23,928 bases of DNA, taken from the IMG/VR virus record IMGVR_UViG_2913123054_000001, positions 1 through 23,928 of that record. The stretch is one strand, 5' to 3'. Positions within the stretch are counted from its first letter, which is position 1; each line of letters starts with the position of its first letter. The position numbers were made by a program, and so were the translations under genes. Shown piece after piece: positions 1,384-21,255 of this stretch. The notes under the pieces are model-generated. The model was given only the letters and a program-made list of their open reading frames with translations. It was not told where the DNA came from and ran no database searches. The DNA comes from a virus (Duplodnaviria > Heunggongvirae > Uroviricota > Caudoviricetes).

Positions 1384-1922
1384 TTTACCCAACGAATACA
1401 GGAAAAAGCGGAGAACACCTTCGTCTCACCACGCTGGAAAGTGTCTGGATTCAGGGGAAACTGCGCATGTGGGGGCGCTGGTCGTATATTGGCGGCGGTA
1501 AGACGGGAAATATGTTCAACCAGTTGCTGACCTCTAAAAAGCTGACAAAAACGGCAATTAACGAGGCGCTCCGGAGGATGAAAAAAGCAGGTCTGGACAA
1601 ACCTGAACTTGAGGCTTTTTTGCGGGATATGATCAACGGCAAGCAAAAAAGCTGGCTGGTGCATTGTACTGATGCAGAGGCGTTATGCATTGATCGGGTG
1701 ATTAGTGAAGTGCTGGCAGAGCATCCTGGATTGATTTTTATCCTCCGACAAAGATATGAAGGGCGGGGGATGAGTAAGCGTAAAATGGCTGAATTGCTGA
1801 ATGATGCACATCCTGAGTGGTGTTTTAGCACATGCGAAAAGCGAATTGCTAATTGGTTAGCCGTTGCTGAATATGCCCTGTATATTCCCATGCGGGAATC
1901 ATTTGCTCAAAAAATAGCTTGA
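1380..1922 (+). CDS. Putative late-gene antiterminator (Q-like)
   Basis: 180-aa ORF; ATG at 1380 overlaps the upstream stop (ATGA) with AAGGAGGG 5 nt upstream. Sits between nin-like genes and a terminator-rich leader preceding the lysis cassette, the canonical Q slot. Call rests on position more than on recognised sequence. Confidence 0.55.
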   Translation: MIYPTNTGKSGEHLRLTTLESVWIQGKLRMWGRWSYIGGGKTGNMFNQLLTSKKLTKTAINEALRRMKKAGLDKPELEAFLRDMINGKQKSWLVHCTDAEALCIDRVISEVLAEHPGLIFILRQRYEGRGMSKRKMAELLNDAHPEWCFSTCEKRIANWLAVAEYALYIPMRESFAQKIA

Positions 1923-2006
1923 TTTTTTACGCATAAACTGCTTCAATTCCGGCAAGCTTCGCAAAGCTGTATCGCGAGGCGAATCAAGCGCATGAACTTT
2001 ACCAGA

Positions 2007-2034
2007 ACCCGCCATTGAGCGGGTTTTGTTCTTT
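2007..2034 (+). terminator. Intrinsic terminator candidate 1 in late leader
   Basis: ACCCGC(2007-2012)/GCGGGT(2019-2024) stem, 6-nt loop, then a T-rich tract TTTGTTCTTT. Confidence 0.5.
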
Positions 2035-2038
2035 CTGA

Positions 2039-2061
2039 GGCTCGCTACGGCGGGCCTTTTT
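2039..2061 (+). terminator. Intrinsic terminator candidate 2 in late leader
   Basis: 7-bp stem 2039-2045/2050-2056 (one G-U pair), UACG loop, T5 tract at 2057-2061. Confidence 0.5.
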
Positions 2062-2150
2062 CATATCCGCGCCACGCCCGGCGCAAATCTGAATAACACC
2101 ACACAAAAGGCATCTGCGAATGCCGGTGCTTTTGACGGGGTGTTTTTTAC

Positions 2151-2172
2151 GGGCCGCTGGTGGCCCTTTTTT
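2151..2172 (+). terminator. Intrinsic terminator candidate 3 (tR'-like) immediately upstream of holin RBS
   Basis: GGGCC(2151-2155)/GGCCC(2162-2166) stem, 6-nt loop, T6 tract at 2167-2172; holin RBS CAGGAGA follows at 2178-2184. Confidence 0.6.
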
Positions 2173-2188
2173 ATTTACAGGAGATGTT

Positions 2189-2575
2189 ATGGCAGAACCA
2201 GTATCCGGCACGACACAGGCCGGGCTGGCTGTTGGCGGGGTAACCGTTGTCGGCCTGTTCGACTGGATTGAGCCAGGCGTATTAATCGGGGCTTTTGCAG
2301 GTTCCATTATTTTTGTTATGTCGGCGCGCGAATACCCGGTCTGGGGAAAATTGCTGCTTTTTATCGCGTCACTGATGGCGGGAATCGTCGCCGCGCCCTT
2401 CTCGTCTTCGGTTATCACTTTGCTTACACCGGAAAGCATTTCAGCCAGTCGTTCGGTTGGTGCGCTGGTGGCGTCTGCGGTATCGGTCCGCTTGTTAATG
2501 CTGTTGGGGAATGAGCCGTCATCATTATTTGGTCGGTTCTGGCCTAAAGGGAGAGGAGGCGATGGGGGTAAGTAA
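2189..2575 (+). CDS. Putative holin (multi-pass membrane protein)
   Basis: 128 aa from ATG 2189 with CAGGAGA RBS directly upstream; three to four hydrophobic helices and a charged C-terminal tail; first gene of the lysis cassette. Confidence 0.65.
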   Translation: MAEPVSGTTQAGLAVGGVTVVGLFDWIEPGVLIGAFAGSIIFVMSAREYPVWGKLLLFIASLMAGIVAAPFSSSVITLLTPESISASRSVGALVASAVSVRLLMLLGNEPSSLFGRFWPKGRGGDGGK

Positions 2576-2843
2576 TTTTATTCTTACGCTGAATGCGTTC
2601 ACCTGCGCCCTGATTGTTCTCGTCCTTCTTGCTTATCAACGAAGTGGCGCAAATTACTGCTGGAAGTCCTCTTTTTGCGCCTGGTTGCTGATGGTTGCCT
2701 GCGGCTCGGTAACCATCTTGATTCTGACCGGGGTCTATCGTCATCCAAGCATACCCGAAACCGTTATCAATATCGCACTGCTGGTGACTGTATGGGGTGC
2801 CAGGGGAAATATATCTCGACTGGTAAACAGCAGGAAGAATTAA
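2562..2843 (+). CDS. Second holin-like / antiholin-like small membrane protein
   Basis: 93 aa from ATG 2562 with GGGAGAGGAGG RBS; overlaps the holin 3' end by 14 nt; three predicted transmembrane segments. Confidence 0.55.
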   Translation: MGVSNFILTLNAFTCALIVLVLLAYQRSGANYCWKSSFCAWLLMVACGSVTILILTGVYRHPSIPETVINIALLVTVWGARGNISRLVNSRKN

Positions 2844-2855
2844 CAGGAAAATATC

Positions 2856-3398
2856 ATGACAAAAGACGAGATTTTTGATGCCGTTCTGGGTAAAGAGGGC
2901 GGCTACGTCAACCATCCGGATGATAAAGGTGGGCCGACCAAATGGGGCATTACGGAAAAAGTCGCCCGTGCGCACGGATATCAGGGTGATATGCGTGACC
3001 TGACGCGCGGGCAGGCGCTGGAAATACTCGAGGCGGATTACTGGTACGGCCCACGATTCGACCAGATTGCTAACCTGTCGCCGGATATTGCCGCAGAGCT
3101 GTGCGACACGGGCGTGAACATGGGACCAGCCGTGGCGTCCAGAATGTTTCAACGCTGGCTGAACGTTTTCAACCTGCGCGGGAAACTGTATCCGGATATG
3201 GATGCAGATGGACGTATCGGCCCACGAACTATTAATGCGTTACGGGCATATCTGAAAAATCGCGGCAGGGATGGCGAACGGGTAATGCTGACCGCACTGA
3301 ACTGTACGCAGGGTGAGCGCTATCTGGAGCTGGCAGAGAGACGGGAGGCCAACGAGTCGTTTGTCTACGGCTGGATGAAAGAGCGCGTGGCAGTTTAA
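2856..3398 (+). CDS. Endolysin, GH108-type N-terminal domain with C-terminal peptidoglycan-binding (PG_binding_3-like) domain
   Basis: 180 aa; N-terminal EGGYVNHPDDKGGPTKWGIT motif typical of GH108 lysozyme-like proteins; AGGAAAA RBS upstream; directly follows the holin genes. Confidence 0.8.
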   Translation: MTKDEIFDAVLGKEGGYVNHPDDKGGPTKWGITEKVARAHGYQGDMRDLTRGQALEILEADYWYGPRFDQIANLSPDIAAELCDTGVNMGPAVASRMFQRWLNVFNLRGKLYPDMDADGRIGPRTINALRAYLKNRGRDGERVMLTALNCTQGERYLELAERREANESFVYGWMKERVAV

Positions 3399-3502
3399 AA
3401 ACTGACGCTGAAGTGCTGAACACCCTCAACTTATTTCGGCTCTATTCTGAATTTACGATGGGCAAAAGTCAGGGTAATGGCGTCAGATGGCAAAAAGCAA
3501 AA

Positions 3503-3535
3503 ACCCCGGCTGCGGTAACAGTCCGGGGTTTTCTG
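3503..3535 (+). terminator. Rho-independent terminator downstream of endolysin (A-tract upstream, so possibly bidirectional)
   Basis: ACCCCGG(3503-3509)/CCGGGGT(3523-3529) stem with inner CUG/CAG pairing, then TTTTCTGTTTC; lies inside the N-terminal part of track ORF 3413..3748, arguing that ORF really starts at 3566. Confidence 0.6.
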
Positions 3536-3565
3536 TTTCTGGCCTTGGGTAAGACAAAGGAAAAC

Positions 3566-3748
3566 ATGACGAATTATAAACTAATTCTGTTGAGGTTGAC
3601 TATGAAAAACGGCCTTGAATTGAAAGCGCCTGTAACTGATGACATCAGCAGAGCGGTGGCTTTTGCCATTAAGTGGGTGGCGGTTGGTATCGCTGTGTCT
3701 CCGATGCTGTATGGGCTGGCAAAACTGGTCATTGCGGTGAAATCGTAA
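3566..3748 (+). CDS. Small membrane protein (60 aa, C-terminal transmembrane helix); lysis-associated or accessory, function unknown
   Basis: In-frame ATG at 3566 with AAGGAAAAC RBS immediately after the terminator; hydrophobic stretch AVAFAIKWVAVGIAVSPMLYGLAKLVIAV. Confidence 0.45.
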   Translation: MTNYKLILLRLTMKNGLELKAPVTDDISRAVAFAIKWVAVGIAVSPMLYGLAKLVIAVKS

Positions 3749-3765
3749 GTGGGGCGGGGGTAAAT

Positions 3766-3900
3766 ATGTCAGACAGCATCATAAAACTGGCGCGGATTCT
3801 TTGTGTGGTTGTTGGCCTTTCATTTTCAGCAATGTTGGTTGCTATTTTCATTTCCACTGCCTGGCGAGTATTGGGCTTATCCGGGTTGATTGGTGGATAG
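3766..3900 (+). CDS. Small hydrophobic peptide (44 aa, single transmembrane helix), function unknown
   Basis: ATG 3766 preceded by a G-rich RBS-like run (3751-3760); sequence MSDSIIKLARILCVVVGLSFSAMLVAIFISTAW is dominated by one transmembrane helix. Confidence 0.4.
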   Translation: MSDSIIKLARILCVVVGLSFSAMLVAIFISTAWRVLGLSGLIGG

Positions 3901-3904
3901 CGAG

Positions 3905-4087
3905 ATGAAGCGGAAGCACTGGACACACAGAATGCCACGAACGGCGGCGAAATGGGCACTGGTAGCGATATTAGCGCCTTTTTTATTGGTGGGATGCGTC
4001 AGCCTGGATAAGGCGCGCCAGCTTTTCGATACCGCTTCTCAGGTCTGTGAAATTGTCGACGGTGTCCGGCAGTGTATGCAGAACTGA
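3905..4087 (+). CDS. Small putative lipoprotein (60 aa; lipobox LLVGC; about 30-aa mature peptide with 3 Cys)
   Basis: ATG 3905 with GGTGGA 8 nt upstream; basic n-region, hydrophobic h-region, lipobox L-V-G-C. Mature part lacks the Pro-rich character of canonical Rz1 o-spanins. Confidence 0.45.
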   Translation: MKRKHWTHRMPRTAAKWALVAILAPFLLVGCVSLDKARQLFDTASQVCEIVDGVRQCMQN

Positions 4088-4116
4088 TCGCCTGATAATT
4101 GTTTTACTAAGGAGAA

Positions 4117-4308
4117 ATGATGGAATCGCCAATTATGAAATATTTCAATTATGAGCATCTTCCGACTTCGTTAAAGGAAGTGAGTAAGCCAATTGGTGAT
4201 CTGGCAAGAGTAATGGATGAATCTTTGCCAGACGGTCCGGAAAAGTCGGCTGGGTTACGTAAATTGCTTGAAGCAAAAGATGCTCTGGTGCGAGCGAAAC
4301 TGGGTTAA
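4117..4308 (+). CDS. Small soluble hypothetical protein (about 63 aa)
   Basis: Strong AAGGAG RBS at 4109-4114 upstream of tandem ATGs at 4117/4120; hydrophilic, helix-prone sequence; no motif recognised. Confidence 0.5.
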   Translation: MMESPIMKYFNYEHLPTSLKEVSKPIGDLARVMDESLPDGPEKSAGLRKLLEAKDALVRAKLG

Positions 4309-4366
4309 GGCATTACAGCAGCCCTTCAGTGAGGGGCTGCGATAATGTCACTAAGAGGAAAAATTC

Positions 4367-5116
4367 ATGGCAAAACCGGACTGGGAGGCCATCGAATCGG
4401 CATACCGGGCCGGAGTCCTTAGCCTCCGTGATATAGGTGAGAAATACGGCGTAACAGAAGGGGCTATCAGGAAGAGGGCTAAAAAGCTTGGTTGGGTACG
4501 CAGTGGCGGTACGCAGGTTTGCAAAAATGGTACGCAAAAAAGAAAAGTGCGTACCAGCAGAAAGCCTGCCATTACTGGCCTTACACAAAAAGGTACGCAA
4601 ACAAAAACAGAACCTACACCGGATACGAAACCGATACGCGGAATGCGTACCGATCCCCCGACTAACCCATTCCAACCCGGTAACCAGCAGGCATTAAAAC
4701 ACGGTGGTTATGCCCGTCGCCTTCTGCTCAAAGATGAGGTGATAGAGGACGCTAAAGCGTTGACGCTCGAGGACGAATTATTTCGCCTTCGTGCTAACAA
4801 CCTTGTCGCTGCAGAGAATATTGGTCGGTGGCTGGTGTCGCTGGAAGATGCTAATGGGGACCAGGAAAGGAAGATGCTGATGGAAAATATCAGCGCCGCC
4901 GAGAAAGCAATGATGCGCAATACAGTTCGTATTGAGTCCATCGTTGGCACGCTTGCGACGGTAGGAAAAATATTTGCTGATACAGCCTACCGCAAGGCCG
5001 CCACTGATAAGGTGTCTCTGGAGGCTGATCGTCTTCGCCGTGATGCAGGTATTGATGATGGCAATGGAGAGCGTGACCTCAATGACTTCTACTCTGACAT
5101 CCAAACCGACGCTTAA
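4367..5116 (+). CDS. Terminase small subunit (DNA-binding, N-terminal HTH-like)
   Basis: 249 aa beginning MAKPDWEAIESAYRAGVLSLRDIGEKYGVTEGAIRKRAKKLGW, a helix-turn-helix-like N-terminus typical of small terminase subunits; sits immediately upstream of the large terminase with overlap. Confidence 0.8.
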   Translation: MAKPDWEAIESAYRAGVLSLRDIGEKYGVTEGAIRKRAKKLGWVRSGGTQVCKNGTQKRKVRTSRKPAITGLTQKGTQTKTEPTPDTKPIRGMRTDPPTNPFQPGNQQALKHGGYARRLLLKDEVIEDAKALTLEDELFRLRANNLVAAENIGRWLVSLEDANGDQERKMLMENISAAEKAMMRNTVRIESIVGTLATVGKIFADTAYRKAATDKVSLEADRLRRDAGIDDGNGERDLNDFYSDIQTDA

Positions 5117-19711: not shown

Positions 19712-20437
19712 GTGAGCAGGCTTGCGATAACCACAATCGTATTTTCTCTTTTTTTAACTTCATGTAGTTGGGATCCTAATGGTGCTAAAGCGCAGGAAAA
19801 ATGGCTATCCCAAAAAAATGAAGAAAAACAAGCGTACGATAAGCAAGTTGAGGAGAGCCAGAAAAGCAGGCTTCAAATACAGCGCGAAGAAAAGTCTCAA
19901 TTTGAAGTTTCACATCCAGAGGTTATCGTTGCTGGTGTTGGGAACGAGCTTACAAGTAAGGGTGCAGAATCTTTGCGAGATGCGTACAACAGCATTCCAT
20001 TCGTAACTCGTTATCCGGGAACCACGGACCCTAACAAAGTTTATACCTATGTCGGTGACTACAAATTAAATTTGCAACTGGTTAACACATCTGTGCTTTC
20101 TCAGATCTCAGATTGCAAACGCATTTCAGCGTATGCCGATGTTGATATTAATCGTACTTGCTTCAATCAAATTGGAAATGATTTGAGTTTGTTTGCATCT
20201 GTAATTAAAGACAAAAATATTACCGGAATTGCAAAAAAAGCAGCTCTACGAGACTCAACTTACGGAACCAAAATTGATTTTGGTCATGCTGCGCGTTTAG
20301 CAAAAATGCATGCCACTTTATGCCAAAAGCAGGGCGGTAAAGGATTTGTCAAAATGTCGACTGTAGCTGTGCCTTGCGGCTCTTCAGGCGATGTAATTAA
20401 CTATCGAAGCGCCGGTAAGATGGGGCTTATAAACTGA
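19712..20437 (+). CDS. AT-rich moron: predicted lipoprotein (241 aa; lipobox LTSC; Lys/Glu/Gln-rich linker followed by a Cys-containing globular domain), function unknown
   Basis: GTG start with GAGGTG RBS at 19696-19701; N-terminus MSRLAITTIVFSLFLTSC is a type II signal peptide with Ser at +2. The first 60 nt are about 38% G+C and the whole gene looks markedly AT-rich against its neighbours; followed by its own strong terminator. Confidence 0.7.
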   Translation: MSRLAITTIVFSLFLTSCSWDPNGAKAQEKWLSQKNEEKQAYDKQVEESQKSRLQIQREEKSQFEVSHPEVIVAGVGNELTSKGAESLRDAYNSIPFVTRYPGTTDPNKVYTYVGDYKLNLQLVNTSVLSQISDCKRISAYADVDINRTCFNQIGNDLSLFASVIKDKNITGIAKKAALRDSTYGTKIDFGHAARLAKMHATLCQKQGGKGFVKMSTVAVPCGSSGDVINYRSAGKMGLIN

Positions 20438-20461
20438 AAAGATCAAATTAGTCACATAAAA

Positions 20462-20483
20462 CCCGCCGGATGGCGGGTTTTTT
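20462..20483 (+). terminator. Rho-independent terminator following the lipoprotein moron
   Basis: CCCGCC(20462-20467)/GGCGGG(20472-20477) stem with GGAU loop and T6 tract at 20478-20483; A-tract upstream suggests possible bidirectional function. Confidence 0.75.
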
Positions 20484-20502
20484 GCTTTCTGGAGCCTACT
20501 AA

Positions 20503-21255
20503 ATGGCAGTATCTGACCAGACTCGCAGCGGCGACCTTGCCGAAACATTCAAATCTGAACGGGAAACAACAAAGAACCAGATCCGTGTCGCCTTGCCTGG
20601 CATTATTCAGTCATTCGATCCTGATGCGGTGACGGCAGTTGTGCAGCCTGCTATCCGTTCGGTTGAAAAGGATAATGACGGCAACCGCATTACCAAAAAT
20701 TACCCATTGCTGGTGGATGTGCCAGTGGTATTCCCGCGTGGCGGAGGATGTACGCTAACGTTTCCGATTAAATCCGGTGATGAGTGTTTGGTGATTTTTG
20801 CCGATCGTTGTATTGATTTCTGGTGGCAGAGTGGCGGGATACAGGAGCCGGTTGATGACAGAATGCATGATTTATCGGATGCGTTTTGTATTGTAGGTCC
20901 CCAGTCGCAGGCGAGGAAGATTAGCGGTATTAATACCAGTGCCACACAGTTGCGTAGTGACGACGGCAGCACCTATTTTGAGCTTAATCCTGATACCAGG
21001 AAAATTAAAATTGTCGCTCCGGGTGGTCTTGATGTGGTTGCCCCTCTGGCTGATTTTTCTGAGAAAGTAACCATTCATGGCCTGTTAACCTGGATGGGTG
21101 GCATGGTGGGGTCTGTTGTTTCTGGTGTGGCTTCAAAAATCACTGGTGCTGTTGAGTTTTTGGGTAGCGTGAAGGCTAACGGCAAGCCAATCGATGATAC
21201 GCACACTCATGGCGGTGTTCAGCGCGGTGGAAGCAATACCGACGGAGTAAACTGA
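20503..21255 (+). CDS. Baseplate central spike protein (P2 gpV / Mu gp45-like)
   Basis: 250-aa ORF with Gly-rich C-terminal region (HTHGGVQRGGSNTDG) typical of gpV-like spike apex domains; precedes the wedge and J-like genes. Confidence 0.65.
   Translation: MAVSDQTRSGDLAETFKSERETTKNQIRVALPGIIQSFDPDAVTAVVQPAIRSVEKDNDGNRITKNYPLLVDVPVVFPRGGGCTLTFPIKSGDECLVIFADRCIDFWWQSGGIQEPVDDRMHDLSDAFCIVGPQSQARKISGINTSATQLRSDDGSTYFELNPDTRKIKIVAPGGLDVVAPLADFSEKVTIHGLLTWMGGMVGSVVSGVASKITGAVEFLGSVKANGKPIDDTHTHGGVQRGGSNTDGVN

Follow-up and report, generated by a model that had tools for sequence, protein, structure and literature searches.

It is an open question of lysis by what means phages that lack a recognisable spanin pair break through the outer membrane of their host, and approximately 13% of the surveyed phages of Gram-negative hosts carry no spanin (Kongari 2018, PMC6139136). 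The question is raised by positions 3413-4308 of a 23,928-nucleotide (nt) stretch of a Caudoviricetes genome (IMG/VR record IMGVR_UViG_2913123054_000001; the whole stretch is hereafter called the window), in which the endolysin gene is followed by a strong hairpin and by four small open reading frames (ORFs), named here ORF-A, ORF-B, ORF-C and ORF-D. An earlier, sequence-only reading had taken the hairpin for a terminator after the endolysin and the four ORFs for a possible unconventional multi-part spanin or lysis regulator set. Our analysis inclines us, on balance, to a different view, namely that the segment holds three independent things: ORF-C, a solitary lipoprotein gene in the slot usually held by the spanin; a mobile module composed of the hairpin, ORF-A and ORF-B; and ORF-D. 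Of the earlier interpretation, the lack of a canonical spanin pair, the reality of the ORFs and the likely assignment of the lipoprotein to the outer-membrane step were retained, and the single four-gene unit and the terminator at the operon end were abandoned.

All four ORFs lie where they had been placed, and each gave a strong match to a PHROG of unknown function (PHROG 1115 for ORF-A, 4906 for ORF-B, 7528 for ORF-C and 1761 for ORF-D; E-values from 1e-19 to 1e-40), with no match for any of them in Pfam, NCBIfam or PADLOC. The sequence-only reading had conceded that the small ORFs might turn out to be untranslated or unconserved. We calculated the ratio of nonsynonymous to synonymous substitution rates (dN/dS) across unique homologous DNA sequences, and obtained values of 0.22-0.29 for ORF-A, 0.11-0.27 for ORF-B, 0.15-0.19 for ORF-C (0.15 for its mature part) and 0.05 for ORF-D. 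Since dN/dS is low in all four cases, the ORFs are translated genes under purifying selection.

ORF-C (3905-4087, + strand; PHROG 7528, E-value 2e-37) encodes a 60-amino-acid (aa) prolipoprotein with a basic n-region and a lipobox that reads LLVG before Cys31. The mature peptide of 30 aa is amphipathic (hydrophobic moment, muH, 0.53) and carries two further cysteines, Cys48 and Cys57, both of which are invariant in a 28-sequence family alignment; Cys57 is also kept in at least 90% of a different, 24-sequence alignment. Members of the family share the lipobox, mature parts of 28-32 aa, the amphipathic helix and a pair of conserved cysteines spaced 9-10 residues apart, and the net charge is -1 in ORF-C. 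The residue at position +2 after the lipobox cysteine is never Asp in any family member, and the protein is therefore predicted to be sorted to the outer membrane. Family members vary at position 10 (M, V, I, T or Q), which identifies Met1 as the conserved start. A scan for transmembrane domains (TMDs) detected no hydrophobic segment after Cys31.

The family is narrow: a set of 1.84 billion proteins yielded 143 clusters when grouped at 90% identity and 23 representatives at 50%, and every one of these is enterobacterial. An exhaustive profile search with ORF-C returned only the 23 representative clusters and no remote family, a viral scan with the distant member P0129 gave no match, and an alignment-based scan of genome contigs for ORF-C relatives found none. 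The earlier suggestion of an entericidin-like lipoprotein found no support in sequence, as ORF-C had no Pfam match at E<=10, the entericidin and colicin lysis protein models included. We note that the exact ORF-C product of the window is uncalled in all public annotations, and that many database entries of the family are 84-aa forms extended upstream into the M15 gene.

Where this gene lies was established from 162 loci that encode a relative of ORF-C. In every one of them it stands directly 3' of the endolysin gene, and where nothing is inserted between the two, the two genes overlap at ATGA or are separated by 4-7 nt or 21 nt. A 21-nt gap is seen in the commonest layout, holin-holin-M15 peptidase-ORF-C, and the partners vary: three unrelated endolysins (M15, GH108 and CHAP PF05257) and at least two holin sets (the PF16931+PF05449 pair or the lambda-S-type PF05106) accompany ORF-C. 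Rz/Rz1 was present in 0 of the 162 loci, compared with 79 loci that lack ORF-C. Four sister cassettes (L254, L271, L298 and L301) display the same holins, GH108 endolysin and ORF-D, and carry a short overlapped two-component spanin in the slot of ORF-C. In eight loci, bor lies 3' of ORF-C on the opposite strand, as it trails Rz in phage lambda. Taken together, the loci, the mutual exclusion with Rz/Rz1, the sister cassettes and the position of bor indicate that ORF-C occupies the spanin slot and moves as a module of its own; judged by its position, it replaces the two-component spanin. The gene was found in 301 of 5426 complete E. coli genomes, and its cassette also in the Stx2e phage phiP27, in the Stx2k phage phiSTEC1575-Stx2k and in prophages of Salmonella, Citrobacter and Cronobacter. 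As a separate observation, the assembly deposited as E. coli 'DH5alpha' (NZ_CP026085; L245, 3486-3668) contains a prophage with a holin-holin-M15-ORF-C cassette.

Small outer-membrane lipoproteins of prophages often serve lysogenic conversion or superinfection exclusion, as do Bor, Cor and Llp, and ORF-C could be such a protein that merely sits beside lysis genes; bor itself occupies the corresponding site in lambda and adjoins ORF-C in the eight loci mentioned above. We consider this unlikely. The ATGA overlap or the 4-21 nt that separate ORF-C from three unrelated endolysin genes leave no room for a promoter of its own, which argues against a lysogenic-conversion gene, and over 241 loci the gene is strictly mutually exclusive with spanins. 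Moreover, it has no PADLOC match, and its signal peptide is homologous to those of o-spanins (the outer-membrane subunits of two-component spanins), as described below.

The absence of a recognisable Rz/Rz1 pair, which the sequence-only reading had reported, was borne out in the entire 23.9-kb window by lipobox and TMD scans and by a search for i-spanins (the inner-membrane subunits). ORF-C is the sole lipobox ORF near the cassette, no ORF of the window has an N-terminal TMD followed by a periplasmic domain, and tblastn of five diverse i-spanin queries against the window gave no match. The complete phiP27 genome contained no other spanin or i-spanin-like candidate. In the commonest ORF-C architecture the four genes are contiguous, and there is therefore no room for an i-spanin gene.

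The closest relatives of ORF-C among known lysis proteins were found through some ORF-D loci (L258 and L260), which carry a pinholin and a SAR (signal-anchor-release) endolysin along with two overlapping spanin genes, for a LysB-like i-spanin (PHROG 214) and a LysC-like o-spanin (PHROG 456, PF23793; 'Rz1-like lysis system protein LysC' at NCBI). The signal peptide of this LysC-like o-spanin, MQRTRSHWSHREPRQISKWLL...LLTGC, resembles that of ORF-C, MKRKHWTHRMPRTAAKWAL...LLVGC. BLASTP aligned the two proteins at 3e-8, the LysC-like protein cross-matched the ORF-C PHROG at 1.8e-4, and hhalign of ORF-C against LysC-like o-spanins gave 96% probability (E-value 2e-9) over residues 2-34, with lipobox placed on lipobox. 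The alignment ends at the lipobox, and the mature parts (30 versus approximately 69 aa) could not be aligned. ORF-C had no match to PF23793 itself within the Pfam and NCBIfam scans. The homology of the signal peptides, including an unusual basic n-region, RKHWTHRxPRxxxKW, common to ORF-C and LysC-type o-spanins, implies common ancestry for the 5' part of these genes. We read ORF-C, from these alignments, as a gene that shares its 5' part with LysC-type o-spanin genes and has, in whichever order, lost the i-spanin and come to carry a different, short mature domain. Two further ideas were tried and rejected. That the mature peptide is the C-terminal tail of LysC after an internal deletion had as sole support a BLASTP segment with E=2, which hhalign did not align; and the frame overlapping the signal region of ORF-C, considered as a remnant of an i-spanin C-terminus, gave nothing in BLASTP and has stops or no start in all loci.

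A LysC-like signal peptide, a missing i-spanin and a mature domain down to 30 aa could also be the marks of a decayed o-spanin that plays no part in lysis, in which case these cassettes would be spanin-less and the outer membrane would fail by shear or through another factor. The roughly 13% of phages without a spanin in the survey of Kongari 2018 (PMC6139136) would provide company for such a phage, and the lack of a call for the exact ORF-C of the window in public annotation fits as well. We nevertheless regard a dead remnant as improbable, because purifying selection acts on the mature peptide (dN/dS 0.15, with both extra cysteines invariant in the family alignment). In addition, ORF-C has been kept through recombination beside three endolysin types, is tightly coupled to the endolysin in translation, and persists in the 301 complete E. 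coli genomes and in other genera.

One copy of the family has been classified before. Kongari 2018 (PMC6139136) listed phiP27 as having a 'separated' two-component spanin, both subunits of which are singleton families and which has the shortest combined periplasmic length (62 residues) of 528 systems. The o-spanin of that pair (20706-20861) is an ORF-C homologue, 92% identical, read from an internal Met; the conserved ORF-C start is located 9 codons upstream of the one used in the survey, and the phiP27 ORF-C spans 20673-20861. The listed i-spanin (20348-20542) is a 64-codon ORF with a TTG start and without a PHROG match, antisense to a 90-aa gene that matches PHROG 36812, and the stretch is missing from nearly all other ORF-C loci. 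Judging from these features, the i-spanin paired with the ORF-C family in the sole published call is probably not a gene. What was already known is therefore that the phiP27 copy is filed as an o-spanin; what is new, as far as sequence comparison can tell, is an o-spanin signal peptide without an i-spanin. In the phiP27 record (L001/L326), ORF-C is unannotated, and L32 is annotated instead in an overlapping frame.

We propose a lysis cassette of the type holin(s)-endolysin-lipoprotein, in which ORF-C would be the fourth core gene. It would be made late, its translation coupled to that of the endolysin, and the product would be lipidated and then delivered to the outer membrane, in its inner leaflet. 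Once the endolysin had removed the wall, turgor would push the inner membrane onto the outer membrane, and the short lipid-anchored peptide, possibly disulfide-linked, would destabilise the outer membrane or fuse both membranes, with no need for an inner-membrane subunit. A route resembling that of colicin lysis proteins would be an alternative, and it has no sequence support. That ORF-C alone disrupts the outer membrane is, in our view, plausible.

Several points weigh against this proposal. In the spanin model, an o-spanin by itself is inactive, and as long as the periplasm is intact, 30 residues are too few to bridge it. The mature peptide lacks a cationic character, its net charge ranging from -4 to +3 across the family, and its AlphaFold2 (AF2) model, one long helix, is of low confidence, with a predicted local distance difference test score (pLDDT) of 64. 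The argument from position is one of guilt by association, and bor of lambda is an example of a non-lysis lipoprotein gene adjoining lysis genes. The search for a spanin covered the window and one complete relative, phiP27, and the rest of the prophage lies beyond the window. Finally, the searched literature held no experiment on any of the four genes.

When compared to known outer-membrane lysis systems, ORF-C agrees with two-component spanins in being a lipobox lipoprotein directly after the endolysin and in having conserved periplasmic cysteines, and departs from them in that it has no partner i-spanin and a 30-aa mature part that is too short for the periplasm. With the P2 LysB/LysC type, it shares an outer-membrane prolipoprotein right after the endolysin, periplasmic cysteines and the same ORF-D gene downstream; however, there is no overlapping or adjacent LysB/Rz, and the mature part is predicted to be helical, whereas that of LysC is proline-rich. 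The unimolecular spanin gp11 of T1 is similar in that a single gene with a lipoprotein signal serves the outer-membrane step, but ORF-C lacks both the C-terminal transmembrane anchor of gp11 and its periplasmic domain of approximately 100 aa. Colicin lysis proteins (bacteriocin release proteins, BRPs), which permeabilise the envelope, and entericidins are of similar size, with a mature lipopeptide of about 28-30 aa and a lipobox; the likeness is one of resemblance only, as their gene context differs from that of ORF-C and no sequence relation was detected. We found no work linking spanins with colicin lysis proteins or entericidin in the searched literature. The disruptin gp28 of phiKT, like ORF-C, is a small single protein that replaces spanins in a spanin-less cassette, and it is described as a cationic, antimicrobial-type peptide (bioRxiv 10.1101/515445). 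ORF-C has a lipoprotein signal, and its amphipathic mature peptide differs from the disruptin in lacking a cationic character.

The ORF-C cassette is common and its host is genetically tractable, so that the question is amenable to experiment. If ORF-C works alone, bridging of the two membranes would not be the sole lipoprotein-based route through the outer membrane, and a 30-residue lipopeptide would represent a minimal outer-membrane-active tool; if it does not, spanin surveys need correcting.

What, then, are ORF-A and ORF-B? The comparison with a sister prophage (L007), whose holins are 100% and GH108 endolysin 96% identical to those of the window, spoke against the idea of a single four-gene set. 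In L007 the stop codon of the endolysin overlaps the start of ORF-C (GTATGAAG), and the locus is homologous to the window up to 3391 and again from 3905 onwards, which establishes exact indel boundaries. The leader, hairpin, ORF-A and ORF-B thus form a discrete accessory insertion of 513 nt (3392-3904) between the endolysin and ORF-C. ORF-A (3566-3748, + strand; PHROG 1115, E-value 2e-40) encodes 60 aa, with a soluble N-terminal part of approximately 30 aa followed by a C-terminal hydrophobic segment that is single and borderline (Kyte-Doolittle (KD) value 1.62), and the exact protein is WP_135410212.1 of Escherichia sp. E4385. ORF-B (3766-3900, + strand; PHROG 4906, E-value 2e-19) encodes 44 aa with a single TMD (residues 11-29) and, where present, always follows ORF-A. 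Exact protein copies of the endolysin, ORF-A and ORF-B all occur in Escherichia sp. E4385.

The module and ORF-C are distributed independently. Neither ORF-A nor ORF-B is found in 103 of the 162 ORF-C loci, an A-type gene alone is found in 30 and both in 29. Conversely, the module lies between a SAR endolysin and a canonical Rz/Rz1 in approximately 78 loci; with a variant of ORF-A as the query, 66 of 80 viral loci had the order pinholin-SAR endolysin-A-B-Rz/Rz1 ('holS lysR A B Rz Rz1'), and most of the others were cut by contig ends. Among the 5426 complete E. coli genomes, 1569 (29%) carry the A-B module, versus 301 for ORF-C. As the same module stands beside complete Rz/Rz1 pairs, ORF-A and ORF-B are not spanin parts. 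An assembly of ORF-A, ORF-B and ORF-C into an unconventional multi-part spanin, which the sequence-only reading had offered, has in its favour that three envelope proteins are encoded consecutively after the endolysin, and that an inner-membrane protein anchored by its C-terminus is possible in principle as an i-spanin (Kongari 2018, PMC6139136). We nonetheless judge it very improbable, given the two distributions just described, in which ORF-C does without both neighbours and the neighbours never need ORF-C, and given a clean insertion whose products have periplasmic tails that are far too short. Nor does ORF-D bind the four genes into one set, since it trails lysis cassettes of every spanin type.

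Other genes have entered at the same place. In a locus labelled as Actinobacillus phage vB_Apl-pPE4 (L006, 2895-3428), which has an E. coli-type cassette in spite of that label, a KilA-N domain gene lies between the M15 endolysin and ORF-C. The presence of the A-B module and of this gene at one junction indicates that the boundary between the endolysin gene and ORF-C or the spanin genes is a hot spot for accessory genes. We also observed, in Salmonella phage SPN3UB (L243), two unannotated ORFs for small membrane proteins of 38 and 45 aa (2305-2421 and 2577-2714), which lie together with the same hairpin in a 400-nt 'empty' gap between the lysozyme and Rz; the 45-aa protein (PHROG 6632) is a distant relative of ORF-A.

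Candidate roles for ORF-A and ORF-B are lysis timing or a toxin-like activity. Lcc6 of the Shewanella phage LambdaSo (bioRxiv 10.1101/2024.01.23.576932), a 65-aa protein with a single TMD that acts with the holin, is a precedent for additional small membrane proteins in lysis, but its TMD is N-terminal, it is encoded far from the lysis genes and it bears no sequence relation to ORF-A or ORF-B.

The hairpin itself (3492-3540) has the form of a bidirectional intrinsic terminator, with an A-tract, a stem at approximately 3499-3532 and a T-tract. That a strong hairpin follows the endolysin gene was correctly seen in the sequence-only reading: it is more stable than shuffled sequence on both strands (dG -29.2 and z-score -3.45 on the + strand; dG -31 and z-score -4.63 on the - strand), and a bulge of one base hid it from a simple terminator scanner. 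The lysis operon does not end here; the hairpin travels with ORF-A, being located upstream of every A-type gene regardless of what precedes it (GH108, M15, SAR lysozyme or other). RNAalifold found no compensatory pairs in the hairpin alignment, in which the outer stem is invariant and the inner stem was mis-registered by MAFFT; each lineage was therefore folded separately. Both flanking tracts, of A upstream and of T downstream, are conserved, and the inner stem varies from lineage to lineage and yet pairs.

On the opposite strand, a promoter-like site (3573-3602, - strand; TAGTCA, 18-nt spacer, TATAAT) lies inside codons 3-13 of ORF-A. It was the only such site found in 1800-4600, with 10 of 12 matches. 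Transcription from it would yield a putative cis-antisense RNA of approximately 75 nt (3490-3567, - strand), covering the Shine-Dalgarno (SD) sequence and AUG of ORF-A and resembling the sar RNA of phage P22; in the predicted fold, an unpaired 5' part complementary to the ORF-A SD/AUG precedes an end made up of the hairpin and a U-run. The -10-like hexamer at +8..+13 is kept in A-type, A'-type and SPN3UB-type genes. In most ORF-A loci it reads TATACT, the P22 -10 hexamer, and in the 45-aa SPN3UB relative the hairpin and a TAATAT at +8..+13 are maintained although the amino acids differ.

The geometry is that of P22. In the sar/ant annotation, sar ends one base before the ant ATG, and +7..+35 of ant is taken up by the sar promoter, with the Psar -10 TATACT at +7..+12; sar inhibits anti-repression (PMC5415839). 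The order of hairpin, ribosome-binding site (RBS), start codon and opposite-strand promoter in the first codons is the same in both systems, and the hairpin has its inner 13 nt, CTGCGGTAACAGT, in common with the terminator of P22 sar. The likeness is one of geometry only: the target here is a 60-aa membrane protein in a lysis cassette and not an antirepressor, and the 5' hairpin is not conserved. Rfam RF00262 (sar) was the best match for the stretch, over 3496-3569 (- strand) and the full length of the model, with 24.2 bits, below the gathering score of 43 (E-values of 0.08 in a 2.7-kb search and 0.009 in a 301-nt search).

By analogy, Q-modified late transcription would read through the hairpin, and the promoter inside the first ORF-A codons would fire in the opposite direction, giving an antisense RNA of about 75 nt, the end of which would lie at this hairpin. 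This RNA would mask the ORF-A RBS, as P22 sar does for ant, and synthesis of ORF-A, and hence of ORF-B, would be kept low or brief. We think that such an antisense RNA is probably made. The hairpin might otherwise be an ordinary + strand terminator or RNA-stability element with no antisense RNA at all, and the same data contain points for this simpler view, which we hold to be a genuine possibility at somewhat less than even chances. The sar match lies under the Rfam gathering score, sister loci reached 20-22 bits, and the hairpins of other loci scored equally well or better against unrelated terminator-containing leader families, so that assignment to sar is a working hypothesis. In addition, the conservation of the -10 and -35 elements may reflect the protein, because they lie in conserved codons. 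An ordinary terminator leaves unexplained, however, why all lineages conserve the upstream A-tract, which only termination on the - strand requires, why the -10-like hexamer is kept in SPN3UB, where the amino acids differ, and why the layout agrees to within 1-2 nt with the experimentally defined sar/ant pair, with 13 nt identical.

An antisense RNA over the RBS of a small hydrophobic protein would also be expected of a type I toxin, and ORF-A is a possible small membrane toxin. If so, the module would be a prophage addiction or abortive-infection element and not a lysis accessory. Its mobility and its presence in 29% of complete E. coli genomes fit such a role, as does the strong terminator of the antisense RNA, and the + strand hairpin would also stop read-through in the lysogen. 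We find this doubtful, given that the insertion is always inside late lysis operons, at one junction and in sense orientation, with no sense-strand promoter found. Besides, a 60-aa protein with a soluble N-terminal half is atypical of these toxins, and no antitoxin was matched in PADLOC or Rfam. If the antisense reading is correct, the A-B module may extend P22 sar-type antisense control to very widespread prophage genes. The most far-reaching form of our proposal joins both subjects, and holds that ORF-C represents a third class of outer-membrane lysis protein, besides spanins and the disruptin, derived from an o-spanin by loss of the i-spanin, and that a sar-type-regulated module is present in approximately 29% of complete E. 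coli genomes; we advance this combination tentatively, as something that could be true but that we would not wager on.

ORF-D (4120-4308, + strand; alternative start at 4117; PHROG 1761/5120) encodes a soluble protein of 62 aa. It had been described as a soluble protein of 63 aa; the gene and its solubility were upheld, and the start was revised, the second Met being the most likely one because the homologues have 62 aa. In 80 loci (L246-L325), ORF-D comes after the last lysis gene of every spanin type, except in two in which it lies between the endolysin and an Rz-like gene, and its downstream neighbours belong to more than 45 unrelated groups. The family comprises more than 3400 clusters, with 81-98% identity, from several orders (Enterobacterales, Xenorhabdus, Providencia, Methylomonas, Xanthobacter), and 39 of 62 columns were invariant in a sample. 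The AF2 model, a short helix and a helical hairpin, has a pLDDT of 93; it found no fold match, and the sequence found none in the PDB. This small soluble protein is ubiquitous and unusually well conserved, and its gene is tied to lysis cassettes, the end of which it marks. So little variation between orders would point to a conserved partner in the host or the phage.

The segment that follows, from the end of ORF-D into the start of the gene for the terminase small subunit (4299-4400), contains a GC-rich hairpin at approximately 4316-4341 without a T-run. Its first 50 nt or so (4299-4347) are also found 3' of a different gene, of the P27 L33 type, in L007, and approximately 4308-4400 matches Klebsiella phages, as well as Fels-1 over 39 nt. 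The segment seems to be part of the packaging module.

The window as a whole represents the late region of a lambdoid prophage whose tail genes are of the myovirus type, in the order DUF1367/DUF1364/DUF1133-type genes, two holins, endolysin, the four small ORFs, terminase subunits and structural genes. Holin 1 (2189-2575, + strand) has 128 aa and three TMDs (PF16931 Phage_holin_8, E-value 3e-20; PHROG 198). Holin 2 (2562-2843, + strand; approximately 93 aa; PF05449 Phage_holin_3_7, E-value 8e-19; PHROG 217) starts at an ATG at 2562 that is preceded by GGAGAGGAGG, a strong SD. A second in-frame, open ATG is present upstream at 2511 (2511-2843), and the two starts may constitute a dual-start holin/antiholin arrangement. 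The endolysin (2856-3398, + strand) combines GH108 and PG_binding_3 domains (PF05838 and PF09374, each with an E-value of 1e-26).

Two other proteins attracted our attention. Between tail and baseplate genes of the window, a 241-aa ORF with a GTG start (19712-20437, + strand) carries a good lipoprotein signal (LFLTS before the Cys); it gave a weak match to PHROG 3727 and none in Pfam or PADLOC, and is a candidate moron or exclusion lipoprotein. A 254-aa protein that is not conserved in other loci is encoded directly upstream of the holin in two divergent ORF-C loci (L088 and L089, 4458-5222), and has one TMD (residues 40-58) and a long Gln-rich helical region.

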